Below are positions 10,007 through 10,732 of a DNA stretch of 64,000 nt, one piece after another. The DNA is from a virus. Lineage: Duplodnaviria; Heunggongvirae; Uroviricota; Caudoviricetes. A program made the translations under genes and the position numbers. The notes beneath the pieces are model-generated. The model was not told where the DNA came from, made no database searches, and saw nothing but the letters and a program-made list of their open reading frames with translations. Positions within the stretch are counted from its first letter, which is position 1, and each line of letters begins with the position of its first letter. The DNA is taken from the IMG/VR virus record IMGVR_UViG_2703718815_000003. One strand, 5' to 3'.

Positions 10007-10396
10007 CTACATCACGGGACAATCATCAAACTCGCCACTTCTTGCGTCGTTGATAATGTGAGTGATCACACCAAACACGGCATTGCTGCCCGTGCATCCA
10101 TCGTCATCCTTTGGCAATGCTTCCTTCTTACCGGTTCTTAAATCCTCCAGATGCTGACGTGGGTACTTCCGGTATCTTTTTACGCGATATTCCCCATCCA
10201 GAGCGCATACAAGCAGAGAACCATCAACCGGGGTAAGTGAGGAATCGACCACCAGCAATGCACCCTGTAATATTCCCTCACGATGATGACTATCAGCTGC
10301 CCTCATGAAGTAGGTCGCTGAAGGATGTCTAATTATCTGCTGATCAAGAGAAATACGGCTCTCAGCATAATCCGCCGCAGGAGAAGGGAAGCCCAT
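10007..10396 (-). CDS. UmuD'-like peptidase S24 C-terminal domain protein (HumD-like)
   Basis: 129 aa beginning MGFPSPAADY, i.e. at the position of the UmuD cleavage product; no umuC partner; LexA box upstream. Confidence 0.75.
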   Translation of the reverse strand: MGFPSPAADYAESRISLDQQIIRHPSATYFMRAADSHHREGILQGALLVVDSSLTPVDGSLLVCALDGEYRVKRYRKYPRQHLEDLRTGKKEALPKDDDGCTGSNAVFGVITHIINDARSGEFDDCPVM

Positions 10397-10412
10397 AATA
10401 CTCGCCTCTTAA

Positions 10413-10432
10413 TACTGTATACACATACAGTA
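10413..10432. promoter_or_regulatory. LexA (SOS) box
   Basis: tactgtatacacatacagta = CTGT-N8-ACAG, about 17 nt upstream of the UmuD'-like start. Confidence 0.8.
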
Positions 10433-10732
10433 TATATTGAAGCTATATATTTTTGAACTCTATCTCTTAAAAAAGATGTTAATAAGATGCTAACTATTGA
10501 AAGGCATAAATATATACAATTCAAACAAACGTTATTTTTAACAAATTTTTTCTTCCCATTGACTTTTTCGAACGCCTTGTCCGGTCTAAAGTGCGCAGAA
10601 GTCACTTTTTCCTTCCTGAGTTATCCACAGGCTTATGCACTTGCATGAAAAATCTATTCACACTATCTTAATTCGCAAGACACTGATGTTGCAGTATTGA
10701 GGGTATGTTGGGTTAAAAATAGACATTAAAAA

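Follow-up and report, generated by a model that had tools for sequence, protein, structure and literature searches.

Phage P1 carries humD, a gene whose product has been described as an already-activated form of UmuD (PMC7092418) and whose expression is LexA-regulated (PMC9603915). P1 HumD is reported to substitute for UmuD′ in SOS mutagenesis (McLenigan 1999, as cited in PMC7092418 and PMC4713147). The present analysis concerns a gene of this type in a 64,000-nucleotide (nt) stretch of viral DNA (IMG/VR record IMGVR_UViG_2703718815_000003; Caudoviricetes). The whole of this stretch is termed the window, and the gene and its product are termed window humD and window HumD. The element is an Escherichia coli SSU5-like phage-plasmid.

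A described element of the same type is Cyrano, which is plasmid pLF82 of the adherent-invasive E. coli LF82. It has 81% identity to SSU5 over 65% coverage, has a copy number of about 5.5 per cell, forms virions, and is induced 39-fold by ciprofloxacin (PMC9928086). Two other phage-plasmid genes, antC of N15 (an antirepressor gene) and coi of P1, use the host LexA as a damage sensor (PMC11652158, PMC4713147). These two genes control a lytic switch; HumD, in contrast, is a polymerase accessory factor with no known role in induction.

As shown below, window humD very probably forms a cassette with its own promoter and LexA operator, bounded by hairpins, that would supply an SOS-induced partner in the UmuD′ form to the UmuC protein of the host. 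The locus has little weight as a discovery, since the family and its regulation are already known. The gene family, the pre-activated form, the orphan status and the LexA control have been known for P1 for decades, and the exact protein has been annotated: RefSeq WP_000506720.1 is identical to it and is named “HumD family translesion DNA polymerase” in recent annotations. The remaining interest is in the decay of the peptidase residue pair across the family, the conserved C-terminal tail and a second LexA-controlled gene.

Identity of the humD gene product

The window HumD amino acid (aa) sequence, which begins with MGFPSPAADY, was compared with family models. The NCBIfam HumD equivalog NF051876 (“HumD family translesion DNA polymerase”) gives a score of 219.8 bits against a cutoff of 120, and the alignment is full length, with residues 1–129 on model positions 1–129 of 129. 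The UmuD subfamily model (NCBIfam NF007621/PRK10276) gives 87 bits, which is under its cutoff of 110; thus the protein falls outside of UmuD proper. The Peptidase_S24 domain of Pfam (PF00717) is matched with 37.9 bits.

Window HumD displays 91.5%–92% identity to P1 HumD and 100% identity to CYRAN_98 of Cyrano. The ratio of nonsynonymous to synonymous substitutions (dN/dS) between window humD and P1 humD is 0.052 at a dS of 0.80, which indicates strong purifying selection on the protein. The chain length is exactly 129 aa in 78 of 78 close relatives from IMG/VR. Together these data support the assignment of the predicted protein as a HumD ortholog. An earlier interpretation made from the DNA letters alone (termed the sequence-only reading) had taken the gene for one of the P1 humD type and had proposed an alignment to UmuD and P1 HumD as a check; the family match and both alignments agree with it.

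A fragment of a CI/LexA repressor was considered as another origin of the open reading frame. It is ruled out by the HumD equivalog match, the UmuD-specific N-terminus and the dN/dS value.

Start at the UmuD′ position and S24 residues

Alignment of window HumD to the UmuD′ chain of known structure, 1umu (HMMER, E = 6.7e-23; UmuD residue numbers were checked against the K-12 UmuD translation) places G2 on UmuD G25, with which UmuD′ begins. In the same alignment S36 falls on UmuD S60 and K73 on UmuD K97, and both the Ser nucleophile and the general-base Lys are present. There is an in-frame TAA 15 nt (five codons) upstream of the humD ATG, and position 10396 is the first possible start; because of this no N-terminal arm can be encoded. 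The start at the UmuD/UmuD′ cleavage position, as claimed in the sequence-only reading, is thereby borne out. An N-terminal extension, or a mis-called start, is ruled out by the same stop codon.

No Cys-Gly cleavage site and no removable N-terminal segment were found in window HumD. The protein starts at the post-cleavage residue and therefore nothing is left to cleave. By its sequence, window HumD is predicted to be a protein with the S24 fold and not a self-processing peptidase.

The sequence-only reading had made the S24 Ser/Lys architecture a test of its proposal. The pair is present, but it is not diagnostic, as only 4 of 23 HumD-type proteins retain the two residues, compared with 59 of 62 full-length UmuDs. 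At the nucleophile position the 23 HumD-type sequences show Thr (15), Ser (4), Gln (2), Ala (1) or Tyr (1), and at the Lys position Lys (13), Arg (8) or Met (2). A decayed Ser/Lys pair fits a protein freed from self-cutting. Mutagenesis by engineered UmuD′ was reportedly found by Nohmi et al. (1988) to be independent of Ser60.

Features of HumD-type proteins

Two further features distinguish the family. The UmuD residue G58 is absent from all 23 HumD-type sequences (window HumD reads A-DSH at the position of the GDSM motif), and a C-terminal tail of the form (I/V)ND..(E/D)(F/W)D(D/E).P is found in all 23. The deletion and the tail were taken as the family criterion, which is derived from this same sample, and window HumD displays both. 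Its residues 115–129, INDARSGEFDDCPVM, represent the C-terminal extension that is common to HumD-type proteins and has no UmuD counterpart.

A sample of 80 bacterial genome loci shows a related contrast. No umuC lies within 2.2 kilobases (kb) of any HumD-type gene, in which the arm is lacking and 19 residues follow the FGV motif, whereas genes with an arm of about 24 residues and a tail of 9 residues are nearly always followed by umuC 0–3 nt downstream. A few loci have a wrong start or a false arm from read-through of upstream frames (e.g. L101, L126), and seven UmuD-type loci show no umuC match; neither affects the contrast. Phage matches at 47% identity or less are full umuDC operons.

On these sequence characters, HumD-type proteins appear as a clean clade: without arm, with G58 deleted, with the C-terminal tail, with a decayed Ser/Lys pair and without umuC. 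This definition is a small but useful clarification for annotators.

The LexA box and promoter region

The sequence-only reading had noted a CTGT-N8-ACAG box about 17 nt upstream of humD. The core, CTGTATACACATACAG, is present at positions 10415..10430 and lies 18 nt from the ATG, the 20-mer that contains it 16 nt. The bare core is not a rare sequence: three copies occur in the window where 0.86 are expected, and 9 of 100 shuffled sequences reach three. Because this 8-base core is not significant, a 20-mer test and a conservation test were used. With the 20-mer consensus TACTGTATATATATACAGTA and at most three mismatches, only two matches were found in the 64 kb, compared with 0.00 expected (100 shuffles). 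These are the humD box, with two mismatches, and a second box (Table 1) with three. The third core match, at position 3314, fails the 20-mer test.

The humD box agrees with the gammaproteobacterial consensus TACTG(TA)5CAGTA at 18 of 20 positions, and its identity to the K-12 recA operator, TACTGTATGAGCATACAGTA, is likewise 18 of 20. The 20-mer starts at −36 in window humD and at −39 both in the E. coli umuDC operator and in P1. Thus the spacing and geometry of the humD box are the same as those of the umuDC operator. In the P1 GenBank record, the homologous site is annotated as “LexA binding site in the regulatory region of lxr and humD”, and it ends 19 nt before the humD start.

The core CTGT-N8-ACAG is kept in 78 of 78 of the IMG/VR close relatives, while the spacer varies. 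Among 29 distinct upstream sequences, positions 3–6 and 15–19 of the 20-mer are invariant and positions 9, 10, 13 and 14 vary freely; the operator is conserved beyond the neutral level. With about half of the synonymous sites changed, invariant arms around a variable center are the pattern that would be expected of a LexA operator under selection.

The segment in common with P1 by blastn spans window positions 10442..10008 with 83.6% identity, and the similarity ends immediately upstream of the LexA box and immediately past the stop codon of humD. The box is also found with more distant relatives. Stand-alone homologs at 44%–71% identity with unrelated flanking sequences have it 34–64 nt upstream, i.e. 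N15 gp26, phiKO2 gp23, and homologs in HK639, an Enterobacter phage, an Aeromonas phage and a Hafnia phage. The phiKO2 box is annotated as a LexA site common to gp23 and a divergent dinI-like gene. No box was found upstream of the HumD-type gene of HK140, where another open reading frame lies directly upstream. At chromosomal HumD-type loci, a box is present within 150 nt in 11 of 13 cases, these 13 being the loci with a start codon placed directly before the GFPSP motif.

The wiring of the element into the host SOS response, as proposed from the sequence alone, is in agreement with the site annotated in P1, with the umuDC-like geometry, and with the 39-fold induction by ciprofloxacin of Cyrano, whose HumD is identical (PMC9928086). 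A chance palindrome is ruled out by the 20-mer test and by conservation of the box.

On the gene strand, the order upstream of humD is a −35-like TTCAAA, 17 nt, and then TATACTGTATGTGTATACAGTATTAAGAGGCGAGTATTATG. The predicted −10 hexamer TATACT (10434..10429) extends into the LexA box and covers its first 4 nt; the promoter is a prediction with 9 of 12 consensus matches. The leader, TTAAGAGGCGAGTATT, is kept in SSU5-type copies. With terminator-like hairpins on both sides (Table 1), humD looks like a self-contained monocistronic unit, and the upstream hairpin would insulate it from the minus-strand operon upstream.

No divergent LexA-controlled partner, such as lxr in P1 or the dinI-like gene in phiKO2, is annotated in the region 10433–11197 in three annotated relatives. 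A weak promoter-like site on the plus strand (10409..10438) overlaps the LexA box, and no divergent gene is evident with it. A 53-aa open reading frame upstream of humD (10487..10648) is without support, and no Rfam RNA family was found in the upstream stretch.

Absence of umuC

A tblastn search with K-12 UmuC gave a best E-value of 6.2 in the window and of 2.6 in the complete 110,949-bp relative pR9-658-1, and no Y-family polymerase is found in the Prokaryotic Genome Annotation Pipeline (PGAP) annotation of pR9-658-1. The statement of the sequence-only reading that humD has no umuC partner thus holds for the window and likewise for this complete relative. A hidden umuC elsewhere on the element is ruled out by the tblastn searches and by the PGAP annotation of the complete relative. 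There is also no adjacent umuC beside any sampled HumD-type gene; the orphan state is the norm of the family and not a peculiarity of the window copy.

Comparison with known systems

P1 HumD (AAQ14181) resembles window HumD in its length of 129 aa, its start at the UmuD′ position, its C-terminal tail and its retained Ser/Lys pair, and P1 humD is likewise a stand-alone gene with a LexA box in the same place, on an E. coli plasmid prophage. The two elements differ in that P1 is a myovirus and the window element an SSU5-like siphovirus phage-plasmid. Downstream of humD, P1 has phd-doc whereas the window has apbC/metG. The P1 genes lxr (divergent) and hot are missing from the window, where only a 103-nt remnant of the region upstream of hot is found, and the central 6 nt of the box differ.

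N15 gp26, phiKO2 gp23 and the UmuD-like proteins of HK140 and HK639 share with window HumD the lack of an arm, the G58 deletion, the EFDDCPV tail and the absence of umuC, and, with the exception of HK140, the LexA box upstream. They differ by their lower identity (64%–73%) and by a Thr at the nucleophile position; HK639 in addition has Met at the Lys position.

E. coli UmuD/UmuD′ (PDB 1umu, 1i4v, 8gmt) has in common with window HumD the S24 fold, the mature N-terminus GFPSPAADY, the Ser and Lys residues and the LexA operator geometry. Here the aa identity is only about 40%, and window HumD is translated straight into the form that UmuD reaches by cleavage. In window HumD, G58 of the GDSM motif is missing, one loop is extended by about 4 residues and the C-terminus by 10, and the score is under the UmuD subfamily cutoff; no umuC is co-transcribed with the gene.

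Proposed role of HumD and alternatives

The following sequence of events is proposed. In an undamaged lysogen, host LexA would occupy the box over the −10 region and humD would be off, as suggested by the sequence of the box, its conservation and the P1 annotation. DNA damage would activate RecA, LexA would cleave itself, and humD would be transcribed. With HumD produced in the UmuD′ form from the outset, RecA-mediated cleavage, on which host UmuD depends, would be skipped. HumD dimers may then bind the SOS-induced UmuC of the host, with the element supplying no catalytic subunit, and the resulting DNA polymerase V (Pol V)-like translesion polymerase could act earlier or more strongly. This activity would be expected to give more damage tolerance and more mutagenesis, both of host DNA and of the element DNA. 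That window HumD can substitute for UmuD′ is inferred from its 92% identity and orthology to P1 HumD.

Several points weigh against this proposal. LexA binding, induction and UmuC interaction of the window copy are predictions from sequence. The 9/12 promoter match is weak and about as frequent in shuffled sequence. The Cyrano genes listed as having above-background transcription in unstressed lysogens include CYRAN_99 (apbC) but not CYRAN_98 (humD) (PMC9928086); this absence from the list of such genes (morons) is consistent with repression but is not proof of it, and is only an indirect sign. With their family-specific tail (aa positions 115–129) and decayed catalytic residues, HumD-type proteins cannot simply be equated with UmuD′, and HumD may have an additional or different partner. 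We know of no established benefit of HumD to any phage, P1 included.

In an alternative, HumD is mainly a modulator. It would form a heterodimer with UmuD, titrate UmuC, cap the RecA filament, or damp recombination or a checkpoint during SOS, and would favor replication of the element or its lytic switch rather than translesion synthesis. The conserved 15-residue tail and the lost S24 constraint point to functional divergence from UmuD′. The E. coli UmuD′2C complex inhibits RecA-mediated recombination. RecA, DnaE and a DnaB-like helicase are all encoded on the element itself, LexA control is limited to two of its genes, and genotoxic stress induces the related Cyrano. The sequence, however, gives no specific pointer to a modulatory role, and the 92% identical P1 HumD is reported to complement UmuD′ in SOS mutagenesis (McLenigan 1999, as cited in PMC7092418 and PMC4713147). 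A modulator is considered unlikely.

A different partner could also be sought on the element itself. HumD might act with the RecA (43149..45488; with an intein in the window) or the DnaE (48465..51983) encoded in the same window, and not with host UmuC; active Pol V contains a RecA-ATP subunit. This appears very improbable, as P1, N15, phiKO2 and the lambdoid HK phages have HumD-type genes with the box and, in the regions examined, no recA or dnaE nearby; LexA control is the only association that is conserved.

The possibility that the open reading frame is a degenerating remnant of umuD or of a LexA/CI-type repressor, with a palindrome that arose by chance in AT-rich sequence, could draw on the match being to the C-terminal S24 domain only and on the bare core not being statistically rare, but it is effectively refuted by a dN/dS of 0.05 at a dS of 0.8, the full-length equivalog match, the constant 129-aa length in the 78 relatives, the 20-mer expectation of 0.00 and the conservation of the box across lineages with unrelated flanks.

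An SOS-induced partner for host UmuC is the proposal that is preferred here. Its practical side is that SSU5-like and P1-like phage-plasmids spread resistance genes, and that the relative pR9-658-1 carries blaCTX-M-15 near humD. A damage-inducible activator of Pol V without the usual delay in activation could raise the supply of mutations under SOS-inducing antibiotics such as ciprofloxacin.

Table 1. Positions of humD, its predicted control signals and other features in the window
Feature	Position	Strand	Description
humD coding sequence	10007..10396	minus	open reading frame, 129 aa including Met1, stop TAG 10009..10007; predicted pre-truncated UmuD′-type accessory subunit
LexA operator (SOS box), predicted	10413..10432	.	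gene-strand 20-mer TACTGTATGTGTATACAGTA; consensus, conservation, P1 annotation
Shine-Dalgarno-like AAGAGG	10405..10410	minus	8 nt before ATG, read from sequence
Sigma-70-like promoter, predicted	10429..10457	minus	TTCAAA, 17-nt spacer, TATACT; consensus scan 9/12
Terminator-like hairpin and T-run	9975..9995	minus	after humD stop, before convergent apbC; 9 pairs, 7 G-C, then TTTTAT
Terminator-like hairpin	10732..10749	minus	about 300 nt upstream of humD
P1 hot-upstream remnant (upfO/DnaA-box region)	10546..10648	minus	blastn 76% identity over 105 nt, E = 2e-16
Second LexA box, predicted	57676..57695	.	TACTGTATAAGTAAACAGTA, 26 nt upstream of tyrosine recombinase gene
Tyrosine recombinase, 367 aa	56546..57649	minus	Pfam Phage_integrase
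Helix-turn-helix regulator	56165..56551	plus	convergent with recombinase gene, 6-nt overlap

The second LexA box

Klebsiella relatives at 73% identity also have the box upstream of the tyrosine recombinase gene (CYRAN_44 in Cyrano), the spacer being different. In the complete related plasmid, the humD box and the recombinase box are the only two LexA-type boxes, and these two sites represent the whole predicted LexA regulon of the element. The convergent gene for the helix-turn-helix regulator corresponds to CYRAN_45, the “putative repressor” of Cyrano, which is expressed in lysogeny (PMC9928086). It may be speculated that SOS-induced transcription into the repressor gene is part of an induction switch.

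A broader idea is that the two-gene LexA regulon, and not repressor cleavage, is the damage sensor and lytic switch of SSU5-type elements, and that the HumD type, having lost the peptidase pair and gained the EFDDCPV tail, has a partner or a role beyond activation of host UmuC. Taken as a whole this is quite unlikely.

About 100 nt upstream of the recombinase gene there is a palindrome with 12-bp arms (ATGATTCCATAC-N6/7-GTATGGAATCAT, 57751..57781). The Klebsiella relatives share the arms but have another loop. The palindrome may be an operator or a site of recombination.

Host element and neighboring genes

The window is 99.8%–100% identical to E. coli plasmids of about 110 kb, and pSTEC409_1 is identical over a 901-nt query. 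The complete plasmid pR9-658-1 encodes RepB, ParB-type partition proteins and a siphovirus structural module, together with a set of replication and nucleotide metabolism proteins (DnaE, a DnaB-like helicase, ligase, RecA, NrdAB, ThyA, dihydrofolate reductase and RNase HI), and metG and apbC adjoin humD. From this gene content the element is an SSU5-like phage-plasmid. Among 5,426 complete genomes of E. coli, 773 contain humD-like DNA, for the most part on plasmids, and 109 show the SSU5-type context, taken as coverage of at least 80% of the 901-nt query.

The remnant of the P1 region upstream of hot lies in a gene-free stretch of about 770 bp upstream of humD and contains a perfect DnaA box, TTATCCACA, at 10621..10629. 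The P1 genes hot and lxr, which in P1 are located between the remnant region and the box, are absent from the window locus. The presence of the remnant suggests movement of the cassette, probably by exchange between phage-plasmids of the P1/D6 type and those of the SSU5 type.

Beside humD, at 6678..9969, are metG, which encodes a methionine-tRNA ligase, and apbC, which encodes an iron-sulfur cluster carrier (Pfam ParA/NUBPL). The two genes are divergent, as they are in enterobacterial chromosomes, which suggests that they are captured host DNA.

The extended-spectrum beta-lactamase gene blaCTX-M-15 of pR9-658-1 is present as ISEcp1-blaCTX-M-15 about 2 kb upstream of humD, in an ea22/DUF551-like block (locus 31455..34239). 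This plasmid also carries dfrA51.

RecA in the window, encoded on the minus strand, has a chain length of 779 aa, compared with 357 aa in pR9-658-1. The window protein carries Pfam intein splicing and LAGLIDADG homing-endonuclease domains within the RecA fold, i.e. it is an intein-bearing RecA on a phage-plasmid. Three tRNA genes are clustered at 60155..60398 on the minus strand (Rfam); pR9-658-1 has Ser, Thr, Tyr and Asn tRNAs at this place.

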